A stretch of DNA of 64,000 nucleotides from Rhodospirillales bacterium 24-66-33 (GTDB lineage: Bacteria > Pseudomonadota > Alphaproteobacteria > Reyranellales > Reyranellaceae): the NCBI GenBank assembly GCA_002281855.1, contig NCHQ01000026.1, positions 12,015 through 76,014 of the forward strand, written 5' to 3'. Numbering within the stretch: the stretch's first letter is position 1; every line of letters starts with the position of its first letter. Of the stretch, positions 32,354 to 63,594 are shown piece after piece. A program made the translations under genes and the position numbers. The notes under the pieces are model-generated. The model was not told the origin of the DNA, did not search any database, and saw nothing but the letters and a program-made list of their open reading frames with translations.

Positions 32354-33484
32354 TCAGTCGGCCCAGTGCTGCATCATCTGTTCGCGGTGATAGTGGGCAT
32401 CGCCCAGCAGCACCTCCGAACTCTTGGCGCGCTTGAACCAGAGATGGGTGTCGTTGTCCCAGGTGAAGCCGATGCCGCCATGGATCTGGATGGCGTGCAC
32501 GGCCGTCTGCAGGGCGGCCTCGCTGGCGGCCGCCTTGGCGATCGATGCGACGGCTGCGATGTCCTCGTCGCCCTCGTCGAGCGCCGCGGCCGCATAGTAG
32601 GCGGCTGACTTCGCCAGTTCGACGTCGACCAGCATGTCGGCATGCTTGTGCTTCATCGACTGGAAGGAGGCGATGGGCCGGCCGAACTGCATGCGCATTT
32701 GCGCGTAGGCCAGGGCATCCTCGCGCAGTCGCTCGGAAACACCGGCCATCTCGTTGGACAGGCAGACCGCCGCCTCGACCAGGGTGCGGGCGAACGGCGC
32801 CGCCGCGGCGCCGGCCTCGCCCAGCAGCGTGGCCTCGACACCCTTGAAGTCCAGGCGTGCAAGTTTACGCGTCGGGTCCATCACCTTGAGGTTCCGCCGC
32901 TCCAGTCCCTGGGCGTCACCCTTGACGGTGAACAGCGAGAGGCCCGCCTCGCCCGAGGTTCCGGCGGCGCGCGCCAGTACGACGATGAGATCGGCGGTGT
33001 GGCCATCCAGCACGTAGCTCTTGTGGCCGTCGAGCTTCCAGGTGCTTCCGGTTTGCGTGGCCGTCATCCGGGTCGCTGCAGCGTCCCAATGGGCGGGGTC
33101 CTCGACCCAGGCCAGCGTGGCGATCGTGTCGCCCGCGGCAATGCCGGGGAGCAGGGCCTGCTTCTGGTCTTCGGTGCCGGCGTTCAGGATCGCGCTTGTC
33201 GCGAGGACGGCCGTCGAGAAGAACGGCGCGCAGAGCAGCGCCCGGCCCATCTCCTCCAGCACGATTCCGAGTTCACCGAAGCCGAAACCCTGTCCGCCAT
33301 AGGCCTCGGGGATGCGCACCGCGGTAAGGCCGAGTTCGGTATTGAGCTTGCGCCAGGCGGCGGGCTCGAAGCCGGCGTCGGTTTCCATCAGGCGCCGCAC
33401 CTCCTTGGTGGGCGAGCGCTCGCCGAGAAACCGGCGCAGGCTGGTCCTGAATTCTTCCTGCTCGCCGGAGAAACTGAACTTCAT
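32354..33484 (-). CDS. Acyl-CoA dehydrogenase family protein (376 aa)
   Basis: Blocks WKLDGHKSYV, FQSMKH and IQIHGGIGFTWDND identify an ACAD fold. It lies 11 nt upstream of the second ACAD gene. Confidence 0.9.
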   Translation of the reverse strand: MKFSFSGEQEEFRTSLRRFLGERSPTKEVRRLMETDAGFEPAAWRKLNTELGLTAVRIPEAYGGQGFGFGELGIVLEEMGRALLCAPFFSTAVLATSAILNAGTEDQKQALLPGIAAGDTIATLAWVEDPAHWDAAATRMTATQTGSTWKLDGHKSYVLDGHTADLIVVLARAAGTSGEAGLSLFTVKGDAQGLERRNLKVMDPTRKLARLDFKGVEATLLGEAGAAAAPFARTLVEAAVCLSNEMAGVSERLREDALAYAQMRMQFGRPIASFQSMKHKHADMLVDVELAKSAAYYAAAALDEGDEDIAAVASIAKAAASEAALQTAVHAIQIHGGIGFTWDNDTHLWFKRAKSSEVLLGDAHYHREQMMQHWAD

Positions 33485-33491
33485 CGAAAAT

Positions 33492-33522
33492 CCTCCCAGT
33501 GTCGATTTTAGGCACTGGGAGG
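33492..33522 (-). promoter_or_regulatory. Perfect 10-bp stem-loop that contains the Shine-Dalgarno of the ACAD operon
   Basis: The mRNA sense is CCUCCCAGUG-ccuaaaaucga-CACUGGGAGG-auuuucg-AUG. The SD GGGAGG is the 3-prime arm of the stem. Confidence 0.45.
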
Positions 33523-33620
33523 GATGACCGAAAGCTCCCGGAGAGTGCCGGGAATTGCAGGGCGAGACTTCGCCGGATTTAGAGTCTCTCGGGCGGAGAA
33601 AGATCAGCTGTTCGAAAACA

Positions 33621-33731
33621 CCTCACCCTGAGGAGCGCTCCGGAGGAGCGCGTCTCGAAGGGTGGGCACGCGCACCGCGTTTGTTGCCCATCCTTCGAGA
33701 CGGCCACTTCGTGGCCTCCTCAGGATGAGGT
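33621..33731. repeat. Intergenic nested-hairpin (REP/MITE-like) element, family B, copy 1
   Basis: Sequence is cctcaccctgagga...gcgtctcgaagggtgggc...gcccatccttcgagacggcc...tcctcaggatgaggt. A second, inverted copy lies at 54507..54618. Confidence 0.8.
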
Positions 33732-33786
33732 TGGTGGGTCAATCTGAGACAAGAGGCCTTGGCAGCGTCACCTCTGAAGTTCGACC

Positions 33787-36700
33787 TCAGACGTGGAGTA
33801 GATCTATGTGAACTGCCGATGGGTCCTGTGCGCCCGTGGCTACGAAACCGAAGCTGGTCTCGCCGTCATGGACGATCGTCCCGTTGTACGAGGCGTTGCC
33901 GATGACGTACCCGCTCGCGTCGTGCGACACGATGACCGCATTCCAGATGTCCGTTATCTGGTTGCTGGTCTCTATCTTGATCTGCCAGCCGGTGACGTTG
34001 CTGGGTCCGTCGTTTTCGAGCGTCACGCTGCCGTTGAAGCCGCCGGACCAGGAGTTCACGATCGCGAACACGGCGTCGACATCTCCGGAGCTGGCCGGCG
34101 GCGTTGGCGTCGGAGGAGGCGTCACCGCTGCGTCATCGTCGACGATGGTGGCCGTGCCGGTGGCGCGCGAGATGGTGGCGCCCACCGCATTGGTCAGCAC
34201 GACGCCGAAATGCTCGTTGCCTTCGACAAGCTTGTCGGACGTGATCTGGATCGTGATCGTCTTGCTCTGCTCGCCCGCCGCGAAGGTCACGTGGCCGTTG
34301 CTGGCGATGAAGTCCGCCGCGCCGGCCTCGCCGTAGACGGTCTGATAGTCCACCGTGACCTCGTGCGTGGCGGCCTCGGAGAGCGTGAGCACGAAGCTCG
34401 CCGTCGGACCGGCAGGCGCACTGCCATCGCCCGGCGCATCCTCGTGGAACTGGTATTCGATGGGCGTCAGGTAGCCCATCTTGGTCTGGTTCACGCCGGT
34501 CCAGTTGTCGGTGAGGATGCCGCCAGTGTCGCTCGAGTTGGGGTTCCACGACCAGAAGGTCCAGCTCGGCCCCTTCTGCCCGGGTGCCAGGTCGGACGTG
34601 CCGTCATTGTCGAAGTCACCGCCGAGATACGAGGTGATGGCTTCCAGCCACGGCGCGTCCTTCGGGTCGACCAGCTTGGTGCCGAATTCGCCGATCCACA
34701 CCGGCGCGATGCCTTCCTTGTAGATGTAGCCCCACATCTGATCGAACTTGGCGGGCAGGTTGGCGGGGAAGTCGGCGCCCTGGAACCACGGCTGCTTGTA
34801 GACCGAGTTGGGGTAGTCGTGCGCCGAGTAGACGAGTCTGTCGTCGAGCGCGAGGTCGATCGGCCGGTCGCGCACGCCCATCAGGTTGCCGCCCCACCAG
34901 TAGCTCTCGCCTTTATAGGTGCCGACCCCCTCGACGAAGATCAGCCAGTTGGGATTGACCGTGCCGATGGCATTGCCGGCGGTCTCGGCCGCCAGCGCCC
35001 AATCGTTGGCGCCGCCGCCGCCCCAGGTGCCGTTGTGGGGCTCGTTGTGCAGGTCCGCGCCGATGACGGTGGGATCGTCGGCGTAGCGCGCCGCCAGCAT
35101 CTTCCAGTCGGCGACCCAGGAGGCCTGCGTGTACTGGCCGTCGTACCACAGGCCATTATCGGACGTTCCGGCGCCAGCGTTGCTGCGATGATGGTCGAGG
35201 ATGATCTTGAGGCCGACCTGGCCGGCATAGTCGACGATCTTGTCCATGATCTGCAGCGCCGACAGGCCCGTGAGGTCGGGATTCTTGTTGAAGTCGATGC
35301 CGTTGGGCGCTGCATTCGTGTGCAGCATTTCGCTCGAGAAGGGCAGGCGGATGGTGTTGAAGCCGAGATCGACCATCTGGTCCATCATGTCCTTGTAGCC
35401 GCGCGTCCACAGGCCATGCGGCGCGAAGGTCGAGGATTCGAAGCCGAACCAGTTCACACCCGCGATCTGCACCGTGTGGCCGGCCGAGTCGACGATCTGG
35501 TTGCCCGAGGTGCTGAGCCAGCCCGGCGCCGCGCCGGTGCCGGGATTGCCCTCGACAACCGAGGCGTCGGAGATGCTGAGCGTCGGCAGGGTCGGCGTGG
35601 CATTGTCGTCGTTGAGGATCGTGCCGATGGCGACGCCGTCGGCGATCACGGCACCGGTCGGCGAAGACAGGGTCAGCTTGAGCGTCTCGTTTGACTCGAC
35701 CGCCGTGTCGCCGCTCACCTGGACGTTGATGACCTTGGAGATCTCGCCGGCCGCGAAGGTCAGGGTCCCCGTCTGGGCCGTGTAGTCCTGCCCCGCTTTC
35801 GCCGTGCCGTTGGCGGTGGTGTATGCGACGGTGACCGGGCCCGAGGTGGCGGCGGACAGGGTGACTGTAAACGCGAGGGCGCTGGTGCCGTTGTTTCCTT
35901 CCGTGACCGTGGCATCGGCGACGGAAATCCTCGCATCGTCGTTGACGATCGTGCCGACGGCGGCGCCGTCGGCGATCTTTCCGCCGGTCGCCGTCGTGAG
36001 GTTGACCTTCATGCCTTCGTTGATTTCGACGGTGGTGTCGCCGATCACCTTCACGTTGATGACCTTGGAGGTTTCGCCGGCGGCAAAGGTGACGGTTCCG
36101 GTCTGGGCTATGTAGTCCGCGCCGGCCTTGGCGCTGCCGTCCGCGGTGGCATAGGTGACCGTGACCGGCCCGCTGGTGGCTTCCGAGAGGGTGACGGTGA
36201 AGGCGAGATCGCGCGTACCGCTGTCGCCTTCCTTCATCGAGGCGTCGGCGATGGCGATTTTGGGAACGATCACGTCGTCGGTGAGGATCGTGCCCGCCGC
36301 CGCACCGTCGGCCAGGGTGGCGCCCGTCGGCGCCGATAGCCTCAACGCAAGCGTTTCGTTGAGTTCGGCGACTCTGTCGCCGTTGATCGTGACGCTGACG
36401 GTCTTCTCCGTCTCGCCGGCCGCGAAGGTGATCGTGCCGGACTTGGCGACATAATCCTGGCCGGCCGTCGCGGTGCCGTCCGCGGTCGCGTAGGCGACCG
36501 TCACCGGTCCGGTGGCCGCCTGGGAAAGGCTGACGGTGAAGACCATCTGCTTGGTGCCGCTGTTGCCCTCGATGACCGAGGCGTCGCCGACCGTGAGGGT
36601 CGGCAGGACCGGCGGCTCGTTGCCCTCTCCGTTCAGCGACAGGCCGGTCGCCGCCGTGCCGCCCGTTGCACCCGGAGTCGCCTGGAAGCCGAAGGTGACG

Positions 36701-36921
36701 CTCCCGCCCGAGGGGACGTTCGCATTGTAGGAGGCATTGCGCAGGACATAGTGGGTGCCGACATGGCTGACGATCTCGGCGCCCCAGATGTTCGTGATGG
36801 CGAAGCCGGCGTCGAATTCGACGGTCCAGCCCCGGGTCCCGGAGGTGCCGCCCTCGACCGTCATGTTGCCGATGAAGCCCGAGCCCCAATTGTCCTTGAC
36901 CGTGTACTTCACCGTCGCCAT
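33787..36921 (-). CDS. Multidomain GH5 glycanase: CBM2-like, 3 Calx-beta repeats, GH5 (apparently nested in a 4th Calx-beta), CBM2-like; no signal peptide
   Basis: A GGAGG SD lies 7 nt upstream of ATG 36921. The N-terminus is MATVKYTVKDNWGSGFIGNMTV...FGFQA. Three repeats of about 111 aa (aa 106-439) carry SGPVTV.YAT.DG.A.AG.DY...GT.TFAAGE. The GH5 blocks are DLHNEPHN (acid/base) and VWIGEFG (nucleophile). The C-terminal module is AIVNSWSGGFNGSVTLEN...FGFVA. Confidence 0.9.
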   Translation of the reverse strand: MATVKYTVKDNWGSGFIGNMTVEGGTSGTRGWTVEFDAGFAITNIWGAEIVSHVGTHYVLRNASYNANVPSGGSVTFGFQATPGATGGTAATGLSLNGEGNEPPVLPTLTVGDASVIEGNSGTKQMVFTVSLSQAATGPVTVAYATADGTATAGQDYVAKSGTITFAAGETEKTVSVTINGDRVAELNETLALRLSAPTGATLADGAAAGTILTDDVIVPKIAIADASMKEGDSGTRDLAFTVTLSEATSGPVTVTYATADGSAKAGADYIAQTGTVTFAAGETSKVINVKVIGDTTVEINEGMKVNLTTATGGKIADGAAVGTIVNDDARISVADATVTEGNNGTSALAFTVTLSAATSGPVTVAYTTANGTAKAGQDYTAQTGTLTFAAGEISKVINVQVSGDTAVESNETLKLTLSSPTGAVIADGVAIGTILNDDNATPTLPTLSISDASVVEGNPGTGAAPGWLSTSGNQIVDSAGHTVQIAGVNWFGFESSTFAPHGLWTRGYKDMMDQMVDLGFNTIRLPFSSEMLHTNAAPNGIDFNKNPDLTGLSALQIMDKIVDYAGQVGLKIILDHHRSNAGAGTSDNGLWYDGQYTQASWVADWKMLAARYADDPTVIGADLHNEPHNGTWGGGGANDWALAAETAGNAIGTVNPNWLIFVEGVGTYKGESYWWGGNLMGVRDRPIDLALDDRLVYSAHDYPNSVYKQPWFQGADFPANLPAKFDQMWGYIYKEGIAPVWIGEFGTKLVDPKDAPWLEAITSYLGGDFDNDGTSDLAPGQKGPSWTFWSWNPNSSDTGGILTDNWTGVNQTKMGYLTPIEYQFHEDAPGDGSAPAGPTASFVLTLSEAATHEVTVDYQTVYGEAGAADFIASNGHVTFAAGEQSKTITIQITSDKLVEGNEHFGVVLTNAVGATISRATGTATIVDDDAAVTPPPTPTPPASSGDVDAVFAIVNSWSGGFNGSVTLENDGPSNVTGWQIKIETSNQITDIWNAVIVSHDASGYVIGNASYNGTIVHDGETSFGFVATGAQDPSAVHIDLLHV
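35605..36606. repeat. Intragenic tandem repeat, three units of about 333/339/330 bp (Calx-beta coding)
   Basis: The units correspond to protein repeats aa 106-216, 217-329 and 330-439. They also show up as three mutually similar antisense ORFs in the track (35474..35785, 35804..36115, 36155..36454), each ending ...SPAAKV.VP.WA. Confidence 0.75.
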
Positions 36922-37001
36922 TGCCTGCCTCCACTCGGTTCCGCGGACTCAAAGTTGCCATCGACTCTCTGACAGTAAATCTTCAGCCGCGGCGCTAGTC
37001 G

Positions 37002-38213
37002 GTGAACGCGGCGGGAAACTCGGCGAACCGTACTGCCCACGGCGGGAAGTGCGGCGCTTGCCTCGCTTCGCCAAATGCCCAATCTTGCGCCGGACTTCCG
37101 CCGCGTCCTCCGGAGTTCACGATCTTGTCCGCTTTCCTGCTTACCCGGTGGAACGGTCTGCCCCTGTTCTGGCGGGCCCAGCTTGCGGGATGGGGACTCT
37201 TCGCGATTGTGAATGTCATGGCGCAGCGCGTGGCCTTCCACAGCTACGGCGTCGCCTTCGCCCGCACCGGCCTCATCCTTCTGTGTCTTGTGATGATCTC
37301 GACGGCGATGCACGCCGTTTACGTCTCGCGACGTTTCGAGGCCCGTGTGTCGCTCGGGGGCATGGCGCTGATCGGCCTGCTGTCGCTTCTCGGCGCGCTG
37401 GCGACCGCGACCGCGATCGTGGCCGCGCACGAAGCCCTTCCCTGGCTGGTGACGCCCGATCGGCGCGGGACCGAGGAATTCCTCATCCCCCTCGTGCATT
37501 ATTTCTTCGTCCTGGCGGGATGGAGCCTCGCCTATTTCTGGCTGCGCGCCGAACTGGCGGAGCAGGCCGAGCACCGCAAGGCCATGCGTGCGCAGGCTGA
37601 GACCCTGCGGGCCGAACTCGAGCAACTGCGGCTCCAGCTCGACCCGCACTTTCTCTTCAACGCCCTGAACGGGGTCGCCGAGGAGATCCCCGAGCACCCG
37701 GCGGCCGCCCTCGAGATGCTGCGCAACCTCAGCGCCTACCTGCGCCATTCGCTCGACGGGATCGATCATACGGTCGTAACCGTTTCGAAAGAAGTTGCCG
37801 GCTTGATGGCCTATCTCGGCGTCCAGAGGGCGCGCTTCGGTAACCGCCTGCACGCGCGTCTCGACGTGATGCCCGAGGCCGCACAATGGCGCATCGCGAG
37901 TTTCCTGCTGCAGCCGCTGGTGGAGAATGCCGTGAAGCACGGCCGGCGCGACGATGGCCTCGACCTCCGCATCGACATTCGCCTGTCGGGCGATACGCTT
38001 CACGTCGAGGTCGAGAATAGCGGCGCGCTCGACGGGACGCCGCGACCGGCGCACCGCCGGCGCCCGGGTATCGGGGTGGAGAACGTGCGCCGTCGTCTCG
38101 CGCTGCACTATCCGGACCGGCATGCCTTCAGCCTAACCGAGATCGGCGAGCATGCCGGGGACAAGAAAGTGATCGCGACACTCGAACTCAAGGGCGAGCC
38201 GTGCGGGTCCTGA
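37002..38213 (+). CDS. LytS/YehU-type sensor histidine kinase (His_kinase domain)
   Basis: Several N-terminal TM helices are followed by LRLQLDPHFLFNALNGV (H-box of the LytS family) and LLQPLVENAVKHG (N-box). The start is uncertain: GTG 37002, or in-frame TTG 37125 with GGAG 10 nt upstream. Confidence 0.85.
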   Translation: MNAAGNSANRTAHGGKCGACLASPNAQSCAGLPPRPPEFTILSAFLLTRWNGLPLFWRAQLAGWGLFAIVNVMAQRVAFHSYGVAFARTGLILLCLVMISTAMHAVYVSRRFEARVSLGGMALIGLLSLLGALATATAIVAAHEALPWLVTPDRRGTEEFLIPLVHYFFVLAGWSLAYFWLRAELAEQAEHRKAMRAQAETLRAELEQLRLQLDPHFLFNALNGVAEEIPEHPAAALEMLRNLSAYLRHSLDGIDHTVVTVSKEVAGLMAYLGVQRARFGNRLHARLDVMPEAAQWRIASFLLQPLVENAVKHGRRDDGLDLRIDIRLSGDTLHVEVENSGALDGTPRPAHRRRPGIGVENVRRRLALHYPDRHAFSLTEIGEHAGDKKVIATLELKGEPCGS

Positions 38214-38914
38214 TCGTCGACGACGAGCCGCTGGCCCGCAGCGCCCTGCGGCGGCTGCTTGCGGCTCATGCCCAGGTGGAGATCGTCGGCGAAGCCGACA
38301 GTACCGAAGCCGCCCGCCAACAGGTCGCGAGCACCCAGCCCGACCTCGTTCTCCTCGACATCGAGCTGGGCGGCGGCCGCGACGGTTTCGACCTGCTCGA
38401 CTCGCTGGTGCGCCGGCCCATCGTGGTCTTCGTCACGGCCTATGCCGAACACGCGGTCGATGCCTTTGCCGTCGAAGCCGTCGATTTTCTGCTCAAGCCG
38501 GTGGAGCCGGCGCGCCTCGAACGGGCACTTGCGCGCGCGGCGCGGGAGATTGCCCTGTCGGCGCGGCCGCCAGGTCCCGGGGCGATCGAGCTGCGGACAC
38601 CGCGTCGAACGTTGCTGGTCGCGCCGGCCGAGATCGTGGCGCTCTGCGCCGACGGCGATTTCGTGCGCGTGTTCGTGGCCGGGCAGCCGCCGGTGATGAT
38701 CCTGCGCACGCTGGCGCATTTCGAAGAGGTGCTGCCGGCCGACTCGTTCGTGCGGCTGGGCCGGTCGGTGATGATCAATCGCGACCGGTTGCGCCGCTTC
38801 GATGCGCCGACGCGGTCGACCAGCCGGCTCTTCCTCGAAGGCATGACCGATCCGCTCGTCATCGGCCGCGCGGCAACGGCCCGTCTGCGCGAGGTGCTGG
38901 CGGATAAAGGCTGA
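38201..38914 (+). CDS. LytR/AlgR-family response regulator (receiver plus LytTR DNA-binding domain)
   Basis: MRVLIVDDEPLAR...DLVLLDIELGG is the receiver, with the phospho-Asp in LLDI. The C-terminal LytTR-type block is ...IVALCADGDFVRVF...FVRLGRSVMINRD. There is a 13-nt overlap with the kinase gene. Confidence 0.9.
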   Translation: MRVLIVDDEPLARSALRRLLAAHAQVEIVGEADSTEAARQQVASTQPDLVLLDIELGGGRDGFDLLDSLVRRPIVVFVTAYAEHAVDAFAVEAVDFLLKPVEPARLERALARAAREIALSARPPGPGAIELRTPRRTLLVAPAEIVALCADGDFVRVFVAGQPPVMILRTLAHFEEVLPADSFVRLGRSVMINRDRLRRFDAPTRSTSRLFLEGMTDPLVIGRAATARLREVLADKG

Positions 38915-54506: not shown

Positions 54507-54618
54507 ACCTCATCCTGAGGAGGCCCGAAGGGCCGTCTCGAAGGATGGGCAACAGACGTGGTGCTCGTGCCCACCCTTCGAGACGCACTCCTTCGGAGTG
54601 TTCCTCAGGGTGAGGGTG
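54507..54618. repeat. Intergenic nested-hairpin element, family B, copy 2 (inverted relative to copy 1)
   Basis: Its reverse complement aligns end to end with 33621..33731. It lies between convergent genes. Confidence 0.8.
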
Positions 54619-54647: not shown

Positions 54648-55838
54648 CTAAATGAACTGGCGGATCGTCGCGATCACCACCAGGGCGCCGATCGCCATGA
54701 CGGCGCTGCCCAGCGAGATCACGGAGAGTGCGCGGCCGGGTGACAGGCGGCCCATATGGGCGGCGATCCAGAAGAAGGGATCGTTGACGTGGCAGATCGC
54801 CATCGATCCCGCGCCGACGGCGGCGGCTGCGAGGGCCCGGCCCGAGTCGCTGTCGAGGCCGAGCGCCGGCAGCATCGGCTCGACCATGCCGGAGGCGGTG
54901 AGCACGGCGGTGAGCGAGTTGCCCTGCATCGTCTTCACGATGGCCGCCGCCAGGAACGGCGTCAGCACGCCGTAGCGCGGATGCAGCGCATACTCGGCCA
55001 GGAGCTCCGACATGCCGGTCTCGTCGAAGACGCGCGCCAGGCCGCCCGACGCGCCGACCGCCATCAGGAGCGGCGCCCAGGAGCGGCCCGCCAGGACCGA
55101 GGGTTCCCAGCGGCGGGCGAGCACGATCGCCAGGGTGACGGCGATGGCCGTCAGCATCAGCGGCTTGGAGATACCGATGTAGAATTCGCGTGCGCCGCCC
55201 CTGCCCAGGGGTTCGCTCGGCATCTGGGCCACCGACTGCAGGACCAGCAGCAGGAGCGGGATGCCGACGCACAGCCAGGCCCAGGAAAGCCCGCCTTCGG
55301 CCGGCTGCGAAGGGACCTGCCGCGCCACGTGCCACCAGCCCAGTGCCACGGCGAGAGCGGCGACCGGGAGCGCGACCATGAATTCCGTACGAACATCGGC
55401 CTTCATGACCGAGGCCGCGGCGACTGCGAGCGGTGAGGGGGCCATGAGGGACGCGACCGCGAGGAGCGTGAGCGCCAGGCCCAGCGCACGCCGCGGTGCG
55501 TCCTGCCCGGCAGGTTGCAGCAGCGCCAGCCCGCCCGAGGCCGAGGCGCCCAGTCCCGCCACCAGCCCCGCCACGGCGGACGTGCCGGTGCCGAGCGGCG
55601 TGCGCAGCACGAGGCCGCTGACCAGAGCGCCCGCGACGACCAGGAGCCCGGTCTGCTCCAGCGCCGCCGTGAAGCCCAGGCCGAACGCCTTACCGACCGA
55701 ATCGAACGTCATGTCGGCGGCGATGCCATAGACCACCACGGTGGCCATGATCGCGAGGAAGACGGGCAGCCGGACGCTCTGGACCAGGAAGACGATGGCG
55801 ACGACGGCGATTGGCAGCAGGAGCGAGGCGAGAAACAT
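54648..55838 (-). CDS. GntP-family (gluconate:H+ symporter-like) permease
   Basis: IVKTMQGNSLTAVLTASGMV and GAGSMAICHVNDPFFW match the conserved GntP blocks (K..QGSs.vA, G.GS...SHvNDsgFW). At 396 aa it is shorter than typical family members. Confidence 0.8.
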   Translation of the reverse strand: MFLASLLLPIAVVAIVFLVQSVRLPVFLAIMATVVVYGIAADMTFDSVGKAFGLGFTAALEQTGLLVVAGALVSGLVLRTPLGTGTSAVAGLVAGLGASASGGLALLQPAGQDAPRRALGLALTLLAVASLMAPSPLAVAAASVMKADVRTEFMVALPVAALAVALGWWHVARQVPSQPAEGGLSWAWLCVGIPLLLLVLQSVAQMPSEPLGRGGAREFYIGISKPLMLTAIAVTLAIVLARRWEPSVLAGRSWAPLLMAVGASGGLARVFDETGMSELLAEYALHPRYGVLTPFLAAAIVKTMQGNSLTAVLTASGMVEPMLPALGLDSDSGRALAAAAVGAGSMAICHVNDPFFWIAAHMGRLSPGRALSVISLGSAVMAIGALVVIATIRQFI

Positions 55839-57063
55839 GACGAGACGAATCTTAGTGTCCTGCTACAGTCTCGTCATGCGCCTCCTCGTCGCTCTCCTGA
55901 TGTTGCTCGGTCTCGCGTCGCCCGTCCATGCAGAGGCGCTGGTCCGGATCGTGGGCAAGGACTTCGTCGAGCCAAACGGTCGCATCCTGCGTCTCAAGGG
56001 AATCAGCCTCGGCAACTGGTTGATGCCCGAAGGCTACATGTTCAAGTTCGAGGTCGCGAAGTCGCCGCACCAGATCTACGGCGCCTTCGACCGGCTTCTG
56101 GGCCCGGAGCGCGCCGCCCAGTTCTGGCAGCGCTACCGTGACACCTACGTGACAGAGGACGACATCCGCTTCATCAAGTCGGCCGGCTTCAACATGGTGC
56201 GGATCCCGCTGCACTGGCGGTTGTTCATGACCGCCGACGGCGAAGTGACGGGCGAGGGGTGGTCGCTGCTCGACCGGGTCGTCGGCTGGGCCGCCGCCAC
56301 CGGGCTCTACGTTATCCCGGACCTGCATGCCGCGCCCGGCGGACAGACCGGGATCAACCACGATGACGGGCCGGGCTACCCCCTGATGTTCTACGTGGCG
56401 CGCAATCGTGACCTCACGGTGAAGCTCTGGCGTGCCGTGGCGCAACGGTACCGCGGTAACCCGGTTATCCTGGGCTACGACATCCTGAACGAGCCGATCG
56501 CGCCCTACCATGACGTGGCGACGCTGAATGCGCGACTGGAACCCTTCTACAAGCGGACGACGGCGGCGATCCGCGAGGTCGATCCCGAGCGCATCGTGAT
56601 CCTGGCGGGCGGCCAGTGGAGCTCGAGCTTCGCCATGCTCGGGCGACCGTTCGCCCGCAACCTGGCCTACACCTACCATTCGTTCTGGGCCTCCACGCAA
56701 CGCGACTCGATCCAGCGGCACCTGAACTTCGCCAACCTCCACGACGTGCCGCTGTTCCTCGGCGAGACAGGCGAACTCAATGACGAGTGGAACGAAGAGT
56801 TCCGCCGCCTGCACGAGGCGCACGGCATCGGCTGGTCGTTCTGGACCTACAAGAATCTCGATACCCAATCGACCATCGTGTCGATCCCGCGGCCCGATGG
56901 CTGGAGCGAGATCGTGGCCTACGCTGACGGCGCTCGAAAGGAAAGGCCGCCGCAGGACCTGGTCGAGCGGGCCCTCGGGCAGTATCTGGACGGCATCCGG
57001 TTCCGCAATGGAACGGTGCGTTGGTCCTATCTTGCGTCGCTCGGCCTAAGAGGCGGCCCCTAG
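55837..57063 (+). CDS. Secreted glycoside hydrolase family 5 protein (beta-glucanase/glucosidase-like)
   Basis: The signal peptide is ...MRLLVALLMLLGLASPVHA; an alternative start is ATG 55876. FNMVRIPLHW is the GH5 strand-2 block, YDILNEPIAP is the acid/base NEP motif and LFLGETGE is the nucleophile block. Confidence 0.85.
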   Translation: MTRRILVSCYSLVMRLLVALLMLLGLASPVHAEALVRIVGKDFVEPNGRILRLKGISLGNWLMPEGYMFKFEVAKSPHQIYGAFDRLLGPERAAQFWQRYRDTYVTEDDIRFIKSAGFNMVRIPLHWRLFMTADGEVTGEGWSLLDRVVGWAAATGLYVIPDLHAAPGGQTGINHDDGPGYPLMFYVARNRDLTVKLWRAVAQRYRGNPVILGYDILNEPIAPYHDVATLNARLEPFYKRTTAAIREVDPERIVILAGGQWSSSFAMLGRPFARNLAYTYHSFWASTQRDSIQRHLNFANLHDVPLFLGETGELNDEWNEEFRRLHEAHGIGWSFWTYKNLDTQSTIVSIPRPDGWSEIVAYADGARKERPPQDLVERALGQYLDGIRFRNGTVRWSYLASLGLRGGP

Positions 57064-58287
57064 CAGTCGGCGCAAGGCGTCGGCAGCGCCATGACGGGGA
57101 CGTGCGCGGGCAGCCTCGACGGTGGCTTCCAGAATGCCCTGGAGCGGGTCCGTCGTCGTGCCGGCAACGGTGGATGCCTGGGCTTTCAGGGCATCCAGCC
57201 GGCCGAGAGCGTCGACCGTCGCCTCGGTGAGTCCGGCGGGGCTGTACTGGGACATGGCCACACCATGCCCGCCCTCGAAGGCAGGCCAGGCGAAGGCACA
57301 TTCTGCAGGCGCCACGATGGGGATACCCATCCGGCGCGCCTCGTTGGAGATCGCCGAACCACGCGTCCTGTAGGACTCGGGATCGTAGGGAAGCAGCAGC
57401 AGGTCGGTATGCGAAAGCAGATCGACATAGGCTTCGTCGGACAGCACACCTCTTCGTATGTCGACGCGTGACCCCAGCCTCTCGAGGTCGTCGAAGATCC
57501 AGCTGTCGCCCTCGGCATCGGACCCCGTGACGATGCCATGGACCGTGAAGTGCGATGTCGCGTGGCGCTCCAGCAGCGCCGGGATGGCTTCGGGCAGGAG
57601 GCGATATCCTTTCGAGCGATTGGCAAAGCCGGCGATCGTCAAATGCGGATGATCGGTCGCATCCGCATGCGAGTCTTCGGGGGCGGAGGGCAGGGCGATA
57701 CCGGCACCCGGTGCCACCCCTACGTCGAAGGGCAGCAGCGCGCGATAGAAGGCGGCCATCGGTTCGGTCTCGCTGTAGGCGACGAGACGCCGGCGGTCGC
57801 CAACCGCCTTGAGAAGAGCGGTGAAGCCCCGGCGCGCCTCCTGGTGGAACGGGATCGCGGCAGGATTGTCCGGCGCAAGCCGGTGGTGCGGACCGTAGAG
57901 CAGCCACATCAGCACCTGTGGCGGAGGCTTCAGCGGGTGGCGCCCCAAGACACGCGCCACGGAGGCAGCCAGGACCTGATCGCAGCAGGGCAGGATCAGG
58001 ATGTCGGGCCAGGTGCCAAGCTGTTTCAGGGCGCGCGCCAGCTCGCGGCTCGTCTGGGCGACGCGGGCCTCGAACTCTCGGGGACTGGCGTAGTCGCGGC
58101 CATAGACAGGGCCGGTGAAGGTTGCCGTGCAGTCGAGCGCGCGCGCGACGTCGGGCGTGGCGGCGATGGAACCAAGGCAAGCGGCGTCGATACCCAACCG
58201 GTCAAGCTCGGCCTGCAACCGGTCGACCGCGGCGTAGTGGTGCCCGCCGTGGGAATGGACGGCCGGATCGACGATGAGCGTCTTCAT
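57046..58287 (-). CDS. Glycosyltransferase, GT-B fold (GT1/GT4-like)
   Basis: The start is MKTLIVDPAVHSHGGHHY (ATG 58287, overlapping the upstream stop as ATGA). The C-terminal block LLLLPYDPESYRTRGSAISNEARRMGIPIVAP resembles the GT4 E-x7-E region. Confidence 0.75.
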   Translation of the reverse strand: MKTLIVDPAVHSHGGHHYAAVDRLQAELDRLGIDAACLGSIAATPDVARALDCTATFTGPVYGRDYASPREFEARVAQTSRELARALKQLGTWPDILILPCCDQVLAASVARVLGRHPLKPPPQVLMWLLYGPHHRLAPDNPAAIPFHQEARRGFTALLKAVGDRRRLVAYSETEPMAAFYRALLPFDVGVAPGAGIALPSAPEDSHADATDHPHLTIAGFANRSKGYRLLPEAIPALLERHATSHFTVHGIVTGSDAEGDSWIFDDLERLGSRVDIRRGVLSDEAYVDLLSHTDLLLLPYDPESYRTRGSAISNEARRMGIPIVAPAECAFAWPAFEGGHGVAMSQYSPAGLTEATVDALGRLDALKAQASTVAGTTTDPLQGILEATVEAARARPRHGAADALRRLLGAAS

Positions 58288-59181
58288 CGGCACTGTTGTA
58301 GCGTGCGCCAGGCGGGACGATAGCGCTCCACTGCCTGGCGCAGCCGCATCGCGGCACGCCATCGCAAGCCGAATTCGCCGGCATTGTAGAGATGCTGCTG
58401 CGGCGCCCGCACCTGCAGCTCGGGGAACACGAAAAGGCGGCCGCCGGCGCGTCCGATCGCTTCGTTGAAGGCGACATGCTCGGAGGCTTCGCGTCCCTGG
58501 GCGTCGAGGCCGACATATCTCGCCTTCAGCGCGTAGGGCATGCGGTAGAGGCCCAGCCCGCCGAACGCCGAGCGAACTTCGATCGGTTGCATCTGCGGAG
58601 GCAATGCAATCTGCCGGTCGAAGACCTCGCGGAACTTCGCGGCCTCGAACGACTCCCGGGCAGGCCGTTCCCAGATCCGGTGCCAGCAATCGTGCGGGCA
58701 CCAGGTTGGATGCCGCAGCGCCCAGATATCGTAGTAACGGGGCGACGCGCTCGCGAACACGGCGGCCCGGTCGGGGGGCGGCGCCGAGCCACTCGGCCGC
58801 TCGGGCGTAGGATCCGAGGTCGAGGGGCGCGGCGAGCACGTCGTCCATGTCGGCGACGACCATGTGGCCGTACTCCGCGAAGGCCGAGCCGCGCACTTCC
58901 TCGAGGCAGGCGTTGCGCGCGAACGCGATCCGTTCGGTCCGCCGCTCGAGCCGTCCGGCGAGCTCGCCGAGATCGAGGACCTTTCCTGCCCGTTCCTTGC
59001 CCATCCAGTCCCGTAACAGGGTGGCGGTGGCGTCGGTTGCGTCGCTGACGGCGAAGATGAAGGCCGTTCGATCGTAGAGCCGCGACAGGTCGGCGAGATT
59101 GGCGAGAACGTCCGGCAGCCAGCGGGCGCAGTCGCGGGCCGTGCCGACGAACACGGCGCTGTCGAGGCTCTTTTCCGTCAT
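58284..59181 (-). pseudogene. Frameshifted (or recoded) putative glycosyltransferase-like gene; the frame switches at a G6/C6 tract (58775..58780)
   Basis: The frame from ATG 59181 is MTEKSLDSAVFVGTARDCARWLPDVLANL...AAEWLGAAP, and it turns Arg/Pro-rich immediately after the C6 run. The +1 frame continues as ...DRAAVFASASPRYYDIWALRHPTWCPHDCW... down to a stop at 58284 that overlaps the next ATG. Confidence 0.6.
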
Positions 59182-59203
59182 GCCGCCGCCAGCGTTCCGG
59201 GGG

Positions 59204-60238
59204 TCATCGTCGTTCGCCCATGAATGAACGGGCATGACCGAGCACGTTCCGTGTCCCGGCAGCCAGCGAGTCGAGGAAGCGGATCCACGTGCCCCTGCTG
59301 CCGGTCGAGCGGGCATCGAGCGCCCGCTTCATCAGCGCCTGCGAATGGGCGTGGCGCCAGTCGCCGAAGGAGGCCCGGATGGACGAGGCCTCCTGGTCGA
59401 GGACGCGCTGGACCAGCTGGAGGATGTGGGTGCTGATCGGACCCCAGTCCTTGGTCGAGGAATTGTAGGTGCCGCCCATGACCGTGGCATTCGAATGCTT
59501 GTTGGAGCCGTGCATGCGATAGCCATAGAGGGCATCGTGAATGGCGATCGAGCCCGTCAGCAGGCCGGCGAATGTCGACAGGTAGTAGTCGAGATAGAGT
59601 CTCAGGTCCTGGTCCGGGACGACGAGCACCAGGTCCACGAAGCTACGCCGGAACATCATGCTCGCCATGCTGTTCGTGGCGCTGAGCGCCGTCCAGTGCG
59701 GATGAAGGGTCAGCCGCCGGTTCCGGGGAAAGGAAAGCTGGCCGGTCGTGGCGTCGATCGTCGGCACCATGGCCGGGTCGATTCCGCCGTGGCCCGTGAC
59801 GTCATGCTCGAACCACCACGCCGTCCCTGCCAGGAGATGGTCATCGGCGTCTATGATGTGCGAATCGCAGTAGGTGAGGGCGACGGGGAAGTCGGCATTC
59901 ATGTGAACGCACAGATGCCGCTCTATGAAATTCTCATACCAGACATCGTCGGAGTCCAGGAAGGCGACGAAGGGCGTGTCCAAATGCGCGAGTCCGCGCT
60001 TGATCGCGCCGGTCTGCCCGACATTGGTGTCCAGAGGGATATAGTCGAATCTCGAATCGCCGAGACGCGACAGGCAATGGCGAATCTCTTCGTCGGAATT
60101 GTCCGTCGAGGCATCGTCGATGACGAGCGTACGCAGGTTTCGGCAGGACTGGCGAGCGACCGACTCGATGGCGCGCCCGACGAAGGCGCCATTGTTGTAG
60201 TTGGCAATCACCACTCCGACCGGGGGTGCTGAAGGCAT
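59204..60238 (-). CDS. Glycosyltransferase family 2
   Basis: The start is MPSAPPVGVVIANYNNGAFVGRAIESVARQS...LVIDDASTDNS (ATG 60238). The DxD motif lies in FLDSDDVW. The 744-aa track ORF upstream of it is antisense read-through of the T1SS gene. Confidence 0.9.
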   Translation of the reverse strand: MPSAPPVGVVIANYNNGAFVGRAIESVARQSCRNLRTLVIDDASTDNSDEEIRHCLSRLGDSRFDYIPLDTNVGQTGAIKRGLAHLDTPFVAFLDSDDVWYENFIERHLCVHMNADFPVALTYCDSHIIDADDHLLAGTAWWFEHDVTGHGGIDPAMVPTIDATTGQLSFPRNRRLTLHPHWTALSATNSMASMMFRRSFVDLVLVVPDQDLRLYLDYYLSTFAGLLTGSIAIHDALYGYRMHGSNKHSNATVMGGTYNSSTKDWGPISTHILQLVQRVLDQEASSIRASFGDWRHAHSQALMKRALDARSTGSRGTWIRFLDSLAAGTRNVLGHARSFMGERR

Positions 60239-60493: not shown

Positions 60494-62293
60494 GTGACGA
60501 GTAAGATGACGCGGGCCCCTTCTCCTGCAGCTGGATCGCCACGGACAGAGCTGGCGGAGGCGCTGCGGTCCTGTCGCACCTCCTATTTGGGGGTCGCGCT
60601 CTTCACCGCCGTCCTGAACATTCTCTACCTCACGGGCTCGTTCTTCATGCTCCAGGTCTACGACCGGGTGCTGCCGAGCCGCAGCGTTCCCACCCTGGTT
60701 GCACTCTGCATCCTCGCCCTCGGCCTCTACGGCTTCCAGGCCATCCTGGATATCGTCCGCAATCGGGTCCTGATCCGCATCGCCGGCGGGTTTGCCGAGA
60801 CGATGGACCGCCGGGTCTATCACCTGCTGGTCAAGCTGCCGCTGCGGGCGCCGCAGATGAACGGCTTCGAGCCGGTCCGCGACCTCGACCAGATCCGCAG
60901 CTTCATGTCGGGCACTGGTCCCGCGGCGCTGTTCGACCTGCCCTGGATGCCGCTCTATCTCGGCATCTGCTACCTGTTCCATCCGTTGATCGGGCTCACC
61001 GCGACGGTCGGCGCACTGATCCTGGTCGCCATCACCTTCGTGACCGAGGTCAAGGTCCGCCAGCCGTCGATCGAGGTCTCGTCGCTCTCCAGCCGGCGGA
61101 GCAGCCTCGCCGAAGCGAGTCGCCGCAATTCGGAGGTCCTCCATGCGATGGGCATGGTCGGCCGCTTCGCCCAGCAGTGGTCGGACTATGGACGTCGCTA
61201 CGTCGACGCGCATCAGAAGGCGGGCGACATCACCGGCGGCATGGGAAGCTTCTCGCGCGCGTTGCGCATGGCGCTGCAATCGGCCGTGCTGGCGGTCGGC
61301 GCCTATCTCGTGATCAAGCAGCAGGCCACGGCCGGCATCATCATCGCCGGCTCCATCCTCTCCGCGCGGGCGCTGGCGCCGGTCGAGCAGGTGATCGCGC
61401 AATGGCGTGTCTTCGTTTCGGCCCGCCAGAGCTGGCACCGGCTCAACAACCTGCTGGCGCGAATCCCGGACGATCGCGACATGATGCAGTTGCCGAGGCC
61501 CAAGGGGTCGCTGTCGGTCGAAGCCGTCAGCGTGGCGCCGCCGGGCGTGAACATGATCGTGGCTCGTGACGTCGCCTTCGTCCTGAAGGCCGGCCAGGGC
61601 CTGGGCATCATCGGCCCCAGCGCGTCCGGCAAGTCGTCGCTAGTGCGCGCGCTCGTGGGCGTATGGCGGCCGGTCGGCGGCAAGGTCCGGATCGACGGTG
61701 CCACCCTCGACCAGTGGTCTTCCGAGGCCTTGGGCGAGCATATCGGCTATCTGCCGCAGGACATGGAGCTTTTCGCCGGCACGGTCGCACAGAACATCGC
61801 CCGCCTGGAGCCCGAACCCGACGCCACCAAGGTGATCGCGGCGGCGCAGGCCGCCGGCGTGCACGAGCTGATTCTCGGCCTGCCCAACGGCTACGAGACC
61901 GAGATGGGCGAAGGCGGCACCGCCTTGTCGGCCGGACAGCGTCAGCGCGTCGGGCTGGCGCGGGCGCTCTATGGCGATCCCTTCCTCGTCGTGTTGGACG
62001 AGCCCAATTCGAGCCTCGATCATGAGGGTGAGGAGGCCCTGACCCGCGCCATCATGTCGGTGCGGGCACGCGGCGGCATCGCCGTCGTCGTGGCCCACAG
62101 GCCGAGTGCCTTGGCCGCGGTCGACCAGCTCCTGGTGATGCGCGGTAACCGGCAGCAAGCCTTCGGGCCGAAGGATGCGGTGCTGCGGGAGACGCTGAAG
62201 GCCGCGATGCCGCAGGCCGCCGGCACCCAGGCGGCGGGCGCCCCGCCGTCTCCGCTTCGGATGCCGGTCGGTCGCCCGCGGGAGCCGTCATGA
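60494..62293 (+). CDS. Type I secretion system ABC transporter (PrtD/AprD/PrsD family permease-ATPase, no C39 peptidase domain)
   Basis: FFMLQVYDRVLPSRS is the hallmark PrtD-family block. Walker A is GPSASGKSS, the signature is LSAGQRQRV and Walker B is LVVLDEPNSSLD. The start is GTG 60494 or ATG 60506. Confidence 0.9.
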   Translation: MTSKMTRAPSPAAGSPRTELAEALRSCRTSYLGVALFTAVLNILYLTGSFFMLQVYDRVLPSRSVPTLVALCILALGLYGFQAILDIVRNRVLIRIAGGFAETMDRRVYHLLVKLPLRAPQMNGFEPVRDLDQIRSFMSGTGPAALFDLPWMPLYLGICYLFHPLIGLTATVGALILVAITFVTEVKVRQPSIEVSSLSSRRSSLAEASRRNSEVLHAMGMVGRFAQQWSDYGRRYVDAHQKAGDITGGMGSFSRALRMALQSAVLAVGAYLVIKQQATAGIIIAGSILSARALAPVEQVIAQWRVFVSARQSWHRLNNLLARIPDDRDMMQLPRPKGSLSVEAVSVAPPGVNMIVARDVAFVLKAGQGLGIIGPSASGKSSLVRALVGVWRPVGGKVRIDGATLDQWSSEALGEHIGYLPQDMELFAGTVAQNIARLEPEPDATKVIAAAQAAGVHELILGLPNGYETEMGEGGTALSAGQRQRVGLARALYGDPFLVVLDEPNSSLDHEGEEALTRAIMSVRARGGIAVVVAHRPSALAAVDQLLVMRGNRQQAFGPKDAVLRETLKAAMPQAAGTQAAGAPPSPLRMPVGRPREPS

Positions 62294-63594
62294 GCCCGCC
62301 CGTGTCCGTCCCGGCCATCACCCGCAAACCCCTCCTGATCGGCGTCGCCGCCTGCCTCCTCCTCGTGTTCGGGGTCGGCGGCTGGGCGGCCACGACGCAG
62401 CTGTCCGGCGCGGTGATCGCGCCCGGTAAGCTCGTCGTCGACACGAACGTGAAGAAGATCCAGCACCCGTCCGGCGGCGTGGTCGGCGAGCTGCTGGTCA
62501 AGGAAGGCGACCGGGTGAAGCAGGGCGACGTCGTCGTCCGGCTCGACGGAACGCAGGCCAAGGCGAATCTCGGGATCGTGACCAAGGCGCTCGAGGAACT
62601 GGCGGCCCGCCAGGCGCGCTTCGAGGCGGAGCGCGACAACGACCGGGTGGTCGAGTTCCCACCCGAACTGACCTCGCGGGCAAGCGATCCGGAGATCGCG
62701 CGCCTGATGAGCGGCGAGCAGAAGCTGTTCGAAATGCGCCGCACCGCGCGCGACGGCCAGAAGGCCCAGCTCAAGGAGCAGATCAAGCAGCTCCACCTCC
62801 AGATCGACGGCACCCAGGCGCAGGAAGCCGCCAAGGGCAAGGAGCTGAAGCTGCTGGCGCAGGAGCTGGAGGGTGTGCGCACGCTCTGGAAGCAGAACCT
62901 GGTGCCGATCAGCCGGGTGACCACCCTGGAACGCGATTCGGCCCGCATGGAGGGCGAGCGCTCCGCCCTGGTCGCCTCGCTGGCACAGAGCCGCGGCCGC
63001 ATCGCCGAGCTCGAACTCAAGATTCACCAGATCGACCAGGATCTCAGCAGCGAGGTCGGCAAGGAACTGGCCGAGATCCGCGCCAAGAAGTCGGAGATGA
63101 GCGAGCGACGGATCTCGGCCGAGGATCAGTTGAAGCGCATCGATCTCGTGTCACCGCAGAACGGCAGGGTGTTCCAGAGGAACGTCCACACCGTCGGCGG
63201 CGTCGTCCAGGCGGGCGAGCCGCTCATGCTGATCGTGCCGGACTCCGACTCGCTGATCGTCGAGGCCAAGGTGGCGCCCCAGGACATCGACCAGATCCAC
63301 ATCGGCCAGCACGCCGTCCTGCGCTTCGCCGCCTTCAACCAGCGCACGACCCCCGAGGTCGATGGCGAGGTGATCCATATCGGCGCCGACGTCACGCAGG
63401 AGGACAGGGCGACCGAGCCCTATTACTCCGTGCGGATCCGCGTTTCCGAAGGCGAACTGTCCCGTCTCGAGGGACTGCACCTGCTGGCCGGCATGCCGGT
63501 CGAAGCCTTCATCCAGACCACGCCGCGCACCGTGGCATCGTTCCTGGTCAAGCCGCTGACGGACCAGCTCGCGCGCGCCTTCCGCGGGCGGTGA
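62290..63594 (+). CDS. Type I secretion system periplasmic adaptor (HlyD/PrtE/PrsE family)
   Basis: There is a 4-nt overlap with the ABC gene. It has an N-terminal TM helix, a long coiled coil, and C-terminal blocks P.DI..I..GQ.A.LRF.AF and ...VKPL.DQ, typical of T1SS membrane-fusion proteins. Confidence 0.9.
   Translation: MSPPVSVPAITRKPLLIGVAACLLLVFGVGGWAATTQLSGAVIAPGKLVVDTNVKKIQHPSGGVVGELLVKEGDRVKQGDVVVRLDGTQAKANLGIVTKALEELAARQARFEAERDNDRVVEFPPELTSRASDPEIARLMSGEQKLFEMRRTARDGQKAQLKEQIKQLHLQIDGTQAQEAAKGKELKLLAQELEGVRTLWKQNLVPISRVTTLERDSARMEGERSALVASLAQSRGRIAELELKIHQIDQDLSSEVGKELAEIRAKKSEMSERRISAEDQLKRIDLVSPQNGRVFQRNVHTVGGVVQAGEPLMLIVPDSDSLIVEAKVAPQDIDQIHIGQHAVLRFAAFNQRTTPEVDGEVIHIGADVTQEDRATEPYYSVRIRVSEGELSRLEGLHLLAGMPVEAFIQTTPRTVASFLVKPLTDQLARAFRGR

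Follow-up and report, generated by a model that had tools for sequence, protein, structure and literature searches.

We analysed a stretch of 64,000 nucleotides from Rhodospirillales bacterium 24-66-33 (contig NCHQ01000026.1, positions 12,015 to 76,014 of the forward strand; hereafter the window), in which a minus-strand gene at 33787..36921 encodes a modular glycoside hydrolase of 1044 residues that starts without a leader peptide. An earlier note, made from the sequence alone, had proposed that the protein is a glycanase exported by a type I secretion system (T1SS) such as the one encoded 23.6 kb away. Comparison of the gene, its two termini and its neighbourhood across related genomes makes it probable, in our assessment, that the gene specifies a secreted leaderless cellulase that would leave the cell by a PrtD/AprE-type T1SS acting on its C terminus and would be under LytTR control. 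The gene and its parts are as follows, in the order of translation.

33787..36921, minus strand: complete open reading frame (ORF) of the predicted leaderless modular GH5 endoglucanase; 1044 residues plus stop, ATG start
36928..36932, minus strand: Shine-Dalgarno sequence GGAGG, 6 nt 5′ of the cellulase ATG, by direct sequence reading
36625..36918, minus strand: N-terminal CBM2, residues 2-99, from Pfam; aromatics W12/W46/Y65, no Cys; an AlphaFold2 (AF2) β-sandwich with predicted local distance difference test (pLDDT) scores of ~76-88
35590..36609, minus strand: three tandem Calx-beta domains, residues 105-444, from Pfam and repeat analysis
35527..35589, minus strand: leading strand LPTLSISDASVVEGNPGTG, short, Calx-beta-like and joined to the GH5 core, from a structure-database match
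34447..35526, minus strand: GH5 catalytic core, residues 466-825, from Pfam, solved-structure matches and motifs
34117..34419, minus strand: fourth, more divergent Calx-beta domain, residues 835-935, from Pfam and repeat analysis
33823..34089, minus strand: C-terminal CBM2, residues 945-1033, with a Pro/Thr linker before it, from Pfam, alignment and AF2
33790..33822, minus strand: tail PSAVHIDLLHV, a putative T1SS recognition motif, from conservation; a β-strand in AF2

Pfam recovers the order of modules that had been read by eye, namely CBM2, three Calx-beta, GH5, Calx-beta and CBM2, with whole-protein matches to Calx-beta (1.6e-68, 4 stretches), Cellulase/GH5 (4.8e-51, residues 484-796) and CBM_2 (2e-31, 2 stretches). 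The terminal modules, until then only likened to carbohydrate-binding domains, reach 68.8 bits (N-terminal) and 61.1 bits (C-terminal) when scanned singly against CBM_2 (PF00553; cut-off 24). The N-terminal match covers profile positions 1-99 of 101 and places position 1 at residue 2, and the C-terminal match covers positions 3-87 of 101, leaving the last 11 residues, PSAVHIDLLHV, outside the profile. Single Calx-beta segments score 73.9, 64.3, 69.6 and 56.2 bits against PF03160 (gathering score 27). The proposed periodicity of ~111 residues is visible in the DNA as a 330-nt tandem repeat (2 copies at 76% identity) and in the protein as three N-terminal Calx-beta copies that are mutually 55-60% identical, with the fourth copy at 42%. 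The two CBM2 modules are 38% identical to each other and share a planar surface aromatic triad of the CBM2a type; its positions W12, W46 and Y65, invariant in both, presumably correspond to Cex W17/W54/W72. An N/C-terminal disulfide, common in Sec-secreted CBM2 modules but not strictly defining, is absent from both, the whole cellulase containing 0 Cys. A full-length AF2 model built on a 41-sequence alignment gives confident β-sandwiches for all six accessory modules and a poor GH5 core (pLDDT 30-60, predicted template modelling score 0.36). The core is identified by sequence, through its matches to solved structures.

The catalytic core matches PF00150 over residues 484-796 at 174.3 bits (cut-off 23.5) and carries HNEPHN at 625, as the earlier note had read it, with a putative acid/base Glu627, and IGEFG at 743, with a putative nucleophile Glu745; the NEP and GEFG motifs are invariant in two family alignments. 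Its closest solved structures are 8FC0, 1ECE, 4TUF and 3W6M. Residues 448-824 match the metagenome-derived endoglucanase CelE2 (8FC0) at E 4.6e-180, with ~75% identity by alignment reading, and further matches are to Acidothermus E1 (1ECE; 1.8e-118), Xanthomonas EngXCA (4TUF; 9.1e-78) and Pyrococcus EGPh (~1e-68). We take E1, EngXCA and EGPh to be members of GH5 subfamily 1 (GH5_1). They have the GH5 core and the NEP/GEFG motifs in common with the window protein; unlike it, they possess classical signal peptides, and they are not known to have Calx-beta domains or a C-terminal acidic-hydrophobic tail. CelE2 resembles the window protein in its core, in the association of GH5 with Calx-beta and in the Calx-beta-like strand LPTLSISDASVVEGNPGTG, which also stands at the N terminus of the CelE2 crystal fragment. 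The solved CelE2 chain is a fragment, however, whereas the window protein has two CBM2 and four Calx-beta modules. The GH5-Calx-beta architecture was already noted in 2011 in PMC3245306, for genomes of Azospirillum and with a relative in Azorhizobium, and PMC12120621 cites a 2023 paper (Pimentel et al.) that deals with CelE2 and its GH5 and Calx-beta domains. The statement in the earlier note that the architecture could not be mapped to a characterised enzyme was therefore wrong: by homology, the gene is predicted to encode a cellulose-binding endo-beta-1,4-glucanase of the E1/CelE2 GH5 type.

Such an enzyme could mainly trim the producer's own cellulose or exopolysaccharide in a biofilm, in the manner of PlyA/PlyB and ExsH, rather than attack plant, algal or amoebal cellulose. 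Known T1SS glycanases do process the exopolysaccharide of their producer, according to a passage in PMC10925705, and the candidate exporter in the window has glycosyltransferase genes (GT2 and GT1-like) and another GH5 gene as neighbours. Two CBM2 modules with an intact aromatic triad, and a core close to bona fide endoglucanases, nevertheless suit binding to insoluble cellulose; GH18 chitinase-like domains, fused or adjacent in paralogs, hint at foreign cell walls as the target, and cellulose synthase genes were not linked in any locus seen. We consider a mainly self-directed role unlikely and favour foreign cellulose as the likelier substrate.

A homolog search with the cellulase returned 6646 matches at E <= 1e-10, of which the best 120 supplied the statistics on the termini. 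Proteins at 90-94% identity bear the name Reyranella, which assigns the window to that alphaproteobacterial genus. Lengths run from ~1000 to ~1800 residues, and 100 of the 120 contain 0 Cys. The start MA[TS][VI]xYxVxDNWGSGF is common to 91 of them, the rest being fragments or proteins with another leaderless N-terminal module. In the window, the N terminus of the cellulase cannot be longer than annotated, because an in-frame TGA lies 9 codons 5′ of the ATG and no ATG, GTG or TTG occurs between the two. Hydropathy over 19 residues peaks at a Kyte-Doolittle value of 1.35 and shows no hydrophobic segment, the CBM_2 profile begins at residue 2, and the protein is strongly acidic in composition (112 Asp+Glu versus 45 Lys+Arg). 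Judged from hydropathy and profile start rather than from SignalP, the protein lacks a Sec/Tat signal, as T1SS substrates do, and the earlier claims of a strong Shine-Dalgarno sequence, an absent signal peptide and an absent upstream start all stand. A longer N terminus with a hidden leader was considered and ruled out by the in-frame TGA and the conserved start. The related idea that the start codon has been mis-assigned in an ordinary Sec- or Tat-secreted cellulase draws on the fact that most CBM2-bearing cellulases are Sec or Tat substrates, and on longest-ORF calls that add arginine-rich N-terminal extensions in several related loci. Those extensions are, however, unconserved and without a hydrophobic core, and with the well-spaced Shine-Dalgarno sequence, the upstream TGA and the shared start of the homologs they leave this idea a negligible probability.

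At the other end, the acidic residue followed by hydrophobics noticed in ...SAVHIDLLHV proves to be a property of the family. P1034, V1037 and D1040-L-L are each at least 90% conserved, giving the consensus ...P..V..DLL[HND][VAL]. A genome scan with the GH5 core as query yielded 51 alphaproteobacterial loci and 31 actinobacterial or planctomycete loci. An acidic-then-hydrophobic end is present in 44 of the 49 alphaproteobacterial members with a complete C terminus, versus 4 of 19 orthologs from Actinobacteria and 0 of 10 from Planctomycetes (4/29 outside the Alphaproteobacteria). The alphaproteobacterial tails persist even though the last domain differs, with ends such as DLLHV, VDLII, DFLFG, FDHLV and QYDIL. 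Substrates of PrtD/AprD-type systems reportedly end in just this way, in an acidic residue and then hydrophobics (attributed to Ghigo and Wandersman, 1994). Conversely, of the 14 actinobacterial orthologs whose 5′ end is intact, at least 10 have Sec-like leaders (for example MGYGRFVGRVGVLAVALGIGLAGPAIAAAD), despite cores that are 70-75% identical to the GH5 core of the window protein, and planctomycete orthologs have N-terminal extensions. This distribution indicates an enzyme that appears to have crossed phyla and to have had its export signals refitted afterwards. Taxonomically, the 70-75% cores belong to Mycobacteriaceae (L032-L060, Mycobacterium/Mycolicibacterium), in which the cellulase genes are large and often contain Calx-beta besides their Sec-like leaders, and cores of ~60% identity are found in Planctomycetes (L067-L083). 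Some relatives, such as P0074 and P0119, have RTX repeats near the C terminus.

Leaderless GH18 (chitinase-like) sequences recur in this family. They are fused to GH5 in forms of 1600-1800 residues that end FDHLV/QYDIL (P0053, P0067 and P0092 among them), they occur as a separate gene between cellulase and PrtD (L027 4631..6235), and the proteins or domains often begin with a repeated '...NPATDKLDFGWFQ' module.

Exporter genes adjoin the cellulase in a subset of relatives. A PrtD plus AprE-type pair, 48-72% identical to the pair in the window, lies next to it in seven loci: downstream of the cellulase in L015, L029, L040 and L063, upstream in L047 and L062, and after one intervening gene in L027. 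Against a generous background of ~2%, 7 linked loci among 51 correspond to a binomial P of ~7e-5. An eighth case, L089, rests on independent gene calls and shows the regulator and kinase, the divergent cellulase, an ABC (ATP-binding cassette) gene 17 nt on, and the adaptor. The closest analogue of the window gene is in L027. There a short-form cellulase with the end VHVDLDV precedes the gene of a second leaderless protein, a Cys-free GH18 with the end QQFDVL, and PrtD comes next.

Upstream of the cellulase, we found a two-component pair and a putative operator that the earlier reading had overlooked.

36922..37124: 203-bp divergent intergenic region between cellulase and sensor kinase
36997..37028, minus strand: bipartite direct repeat GTTCGCCGAGT-N10-GTTCACCGACT, a putative LytTR operator, 21 bp start to start, at -107/-86 from the ATG
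37125..38213, plus strand: LytS-like membrane histidine kinase (His_kinase PF06580, 68.6 bits), with a polytopic membrane N terminus
38201..38914, plus strand: response regulator with receiver (Response_reg, 80.1 bits) and LytTR DNA-binding (45 bits) domains

The kinase gene accompanies the cellulase in 41, and the regulator gene in 40, of the 51 alphaproteobacterial loci, and neither occurs in the 31 actinobacterial or planctomycete loci. The window resembles Roseococcus, Aquabacter and Azorhizobium in that a divergent PF06580 kinase and a LytTR regulator are the sole conserved neighbours of the cellulase. The true kinase start is likely the TTG at 37125, and the intergenic region accordingly 203 bp, because of the ortholog alignment. 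The longest kinase ORF begins at a GTG at 37002 and overlaps the putative operator; this extension has no counterpart in orthologs. Upstream footprinting identified a direct pair of GTTC[AG][CT]CGA[GC]T motifs with a spacing of exactly 21 bp, always in the cellulase orientation, 85-136 bp before the start, and conserved across genera. The strict pattern occurs as a pair in 18 of 32 loci, and most of the remaining loci show, by eye, a degenerate upstream half-site. Within the window the pattern occurs once, at 36997..37028, and 100 shuffles gave 0 matches. The classic LytTR site consists of 9-bp repeats with a 12-bp spacer, which gives a 21-bp period. Where the exporter genes stand between the regulator pair and the cellulase, in L047 and L062, the bipartite site precedes both PrtD and the cellulase, a duplication that ties exporter and enzyme into one probable regulon.

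LytTR dimers recognise direct repeats that stand upstream of promoters, as described in a passage of PMC4227749. The arrangement in the window is like that of AgrCA, AlgZR, BtsSR/YpdAB and LytSR in its polytopic PF06580 kinase, its regulator with receiver and LytTR domains, and its two direct repeats before the target promoter (PMC4227749). It differs in that the regulator falls below every NCBIfam equivalog cut-off (best BtsR-like), the kinase matches none of these families, and control of a secreted cellulase is absent from the literature searched. On this comparative evidence, transcription of the cellulase is most likely controlled by the divergent LytS-like kinase and LytTR regulator through 36997..37028.

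With both termini conserved family-wide, exporter genes adjacent in eight genomes and Sec-like leaders on the actinobacterial orthologs, the central idea of the earlier note, a glycanase exported by a T1SS, gains support, and we regard export of the cellulase by a T1SS as very probable. No published link of GH5-Calx-beta cellulases to T1SS or to LytTR control was found in the literature searched, the coverage of which was incomplete and is not proof of novelty.

A different exit, by holin- or peptidoglycan-hydrolase-dependent release, regulated lysis or vesicles, would give the conserved neighbours another meaning; LytS/LytTR control would then echo that of holin-like genes by LytSR. Leaderless Serratia chitinases are released in a holin- and peptidoglycan-hydrolase-dependent manner. 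Most loci have no T1SS genes within ~10 kb of the cellulase, and just beyond the window, ~2 kb to the right of its T1SS, there is a gene for a GH25 muramidase. Yet in none of the loci examined is a holin, endopeptidase or lysis gene conserved beside the cellulase, and T1SS is favoured by gene adjacency in eight genomes, by operators in common and by conservation of the acidic-hydrophobic tail. We judge an exit of this kind quite improbable and retain type I export.

Several observations weigh against type I export by way of the tail. In the AF2 model, residues 1038-1043 form the final β-strand, and in the alignment of the two modules the tail pairs with the end of the N-terminal CBM2; because of these two features, conservation of the tail could be in part structural rather than that of a signal. 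Most of the linkage cases involve the long GH5+GH18 paralog or a Xanthobacteraceae form, the short form being linked only in L027. A regular expression and Pfam gave 0 matches to the RTX nonapeptide GGxGxDxUx or PF00353 in the cellulase, which for that reason is not an RTX protein. Calx-beta motifs for Ca2+ ligands are only partly conserved: TADGSAKAGADY, GDTTVEINE and NDD align with TEDGTANAGSDY, DDDIFEEDE and DDD of NCX1 CBD1/CBD2, a partial ligand set. The suggestion that Calx-beta stands in for RTX remains an inference, given these motifs. Moreover, the evidence for export is comparative throughout.

Within the window, the candidate exporter consists of two overlapping genes, both of which exceed their NCBIfam cut-offs and so uphold the identification of this segment as a T1SS.

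60494..62293, plus strand: PrtD-type T1SS ABC permease/ATPase, candidate exporter (TIGR01842, 724.1 bits versus a cut-off of 510.15)
62290..63594, plus strand: HlyD/AprE-type T1SS membrane-fusion adaptor, candidate exporter (TIGR01843, 397.5 bits versus 208.65)

Pfam HH_AprE and Beta-barrel_AprE also match the adaptor. Whether this pair serves the cellulase bears on the pairing made in the earlier note, which holds in part: the exporter belongs to the right lineage and is the sole visible candidate, but its position in the tree, the company its relatives keep and the lack of an operator all tell against a dedicated partnership. We therefore assign the pair at 60494..63594 to the cellulase only tentatively, at slightly less than an even chance. 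The cellulase may instead be a T1SS substrate that is exported by another PrtD/AprE pair, for example one linked to the long GH5+GH18 paralog, with the window pair serving other clients, a possibility that we take seriously without expecting it.

The window pair lies 23.6 kb from the cellulase. No TolC/PrtF-type gene was found among the large genes of the window or within 10 kb to its right, although the outer-membrane TolC-type component is often encoded elsewhere in the genome. In favour of another exporter, no LytTR-type operator was found upstream of the window PrtD, and none of the genes flanking the window T1SS is shared with the cellulase-linked exporters. PrtD homologs form a continuum of identity from 93% down to 64%, and in a rough, midpoint-rooted neighbour-joining tree without support values the clade that holds the window PrtD is sister to that of the cellulase-linked PrtDs from Reyranella. 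PrtDs that are 80% and 72% identical to that of the window precede an unrelated giant DUF4114 protein (L087 13228..18666 and L088 13286..17560) that is leaderless, Cys-free and acidic, has 1812 or 1424 residues and a C-terminal DUF4114 match, and ends DFDYNDVVVRLTLA; this protein is probably the own T1SS substrate of the L087 and L088 exporters. No homolog of it was found in the window.

Other observations keep the window pair in play. It is the only T1SS seen and has no adjacent substrate gene of its own, it belongs to the same lineage as the Reyranella cellulase-linked pairs (66-72% identity), and the tree that separates it from them is the unsupported one just described. In that tree the L027 PrtD is basal to both Reyranella clades and the Xanthobacteraceae cellulase-linked PrtDs cluster across the root, so that the basal branch of the lineage and the Xanthobacteraceae cluster are likewise cellulase-linked. 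PrtD-type exporters, furthermore, accept several substrates with similar tails, PrsDE being described in a passage of PMC10925705 as handling many proteins.

To the left of the exporter lies a second GH5 gene.

55741..57063, plus strand: second, unrelated GH5 (GH5b), 24% identical to a family member, with the classical Sec signal LLVALLMLLGLASPVHA/EA

We considered GH5b as a decayed cellulase paralog beside the window T1SS and rejected it on its 24% identity and classical Sec signal. Next to it are a GT1-like gene and a GT2 gene (57046..59316 and 59204..60238, both minus strand), the GT2 gene being divergent from the T1SS. With these polysaccharide-related genes, the neighbourhood calls to mind the rhizobial pss/prsDE region.

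We propose the following course of events for type I export. The cellulase would be synthesised without an N-terminal leader, unfolded and Cys-free, and its uncleaved C terminus (...P..V..DLL[HND][VAL]) would be recognised by a PrtD/AprE-type ABC exporter. Threaded unfolded and with the C terminus leading through an ABC-adaptor-TolC conduit, it would bypass the periplasm; the C-terminal CBM2 and the Calx-beta sandwiches would then fold outside the cell, probably assisted by Ca2+ binding to Calx-beta, and the two CBM2 modules would anchor the endoglucanase on insoluble cellulose. The LytS-like kinase and LytTR regulator would act on the direct repeat at 36997..37028 to control transcription. 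The route conforms to what a passage in PMC3034196 sets out for T1SS in general, namely uncleaved C-terminal signals, no periplasmic intermediate, Ca2+-driven extracellular folding and, in some substrates, no Cys.

Other proteins offer partial parallels to this scheme. Proteases of the serralysin family and family I.3 lipases lack an N-terminal signal, as the window protein does; their C-terminal signal is uncleaved, they fold outside the cell in a Ca2+-dependent manner, and some are Cys-free (PMC3034196). They carry GGxGxDxUx repeats, of which the window protein has none, and its tail is modelled as the final CBM2 strand. Rhizobial PlyA and PlyB, glycanases that a passage in PMC10925705 describes as exported by PrsDE, and ExsH are likewise leaderless hydrolases that use PrtD-type export by an ABC protein and a membrane-fusion protein in Alphaproteobacteria, with a substrate gene that may be distant (PMC10925705). 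They differ from the window protein in having unrelated catalytic folds and in acting on the producer's acidic exopolysaccharide or on succinoglycan. In place of Calx-beta and CBM2, these proteins have RTX-like or heptapeptide repeats. Giant adhesins of the LapA family also have tandem Ca-binding Ig-like or Calx-beta-like repeats, and Calx-beta repeats 1 and 2 of the cellulase give weak matches to the Pfam LapA domain (24.0 and 18.5 bits, where the gathering score is 27). The window protein is far smaller, however, and has an enzymatic core, and neither LapG/LapD genes nor a retention module was identified.

More broadly, the kinase/regulator pair, the operator, the leaderless glycoside hydrolase or hydrolases and sometimes a PrtD/AprE exporter may form a portable alphaproteobacterial 'sense-and-secrete' cassette that defines a non-RTX class of type I substrates. 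In such a class a complete CBM would double as the secretion signal, its last β-strand bearing the acidic-hydrophobic motif, and Calx-beta would replace RTX as a Ca2+-driven folding ratchet. We offer this as a conjecture that we hold at somewhat less than an even chance. More speculatively still, the N-terminal CBM2, last out of the channel, might transiently tether the enzyme at the cell surface.

The base composition of the gene had been read as a sign of horizontal acquisition. The gene is indeed slightly poorer in GC than the window (65.7% versus 67.1%), a deficit that stems from codon position 1, but acquisition is unsupported and was rejected: because its GC at third codon positions (GC3), 0.89, is typical of window genes (range 0.81-0.95), the gene carries no compositional sign of recent acquisition. 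Scans for a sigma-70 promoter and a terminator yielded nothing above chance, and Rfam on 33400..37300 gave no match near the gathering scores. The cellulase gene is overlapped by long ORFs, antisense or out of frame, that reach 628 residues (for example 33808..35694 on the plus strand and 35156..36961 on the minus strand); their codon-position GC pattern is atypical, and they are the usual artefact of ~67% GC DNA.

A long nested hairpin, whose outer arms measure 16 nt and whose inner arms measure 18 nt, occupies intergenic DNA at 33620..33731 and again at ~54536..54583. The RNA fold has an energy of -84.5 kcal/mol (z = -9.4), and Rfam gave no match to a family. The hairpin also occurs ~100 nt past the cellulase stop in L010 and L011, and in L084-L086; in other Reyranella loci it thus stands downstream of the cellulase. 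It looks like a repetitive extragenic palindromic (REP)-like element or a terminator or stabiliser.

Cellulases of Gram-negative bacteria are usually assumed to exit by Sec or Tat and then by type II secretion. A passage of PMC10925705 concedes that the route by which cellulases leave rhizobia-like Alphaproteobacteria without type II systems is unclear. The family described here suggests a concrete answer that can be tested, namely that an RTX-free endoglucanase with a CBM2 tail is exported in one step by type I secretion, and the same core with Sec-like leaders in Actinobacteria would represent one enzyme refitted for different envelopes. A CBM2-type C-terminal export tag could serve the secretion of enzymes from Gram-negative hosts, and the conserved operator and two-component pair would provide a handle on the inducers of cellulase secretion in soil and freshwater Alphaproteobacteria.

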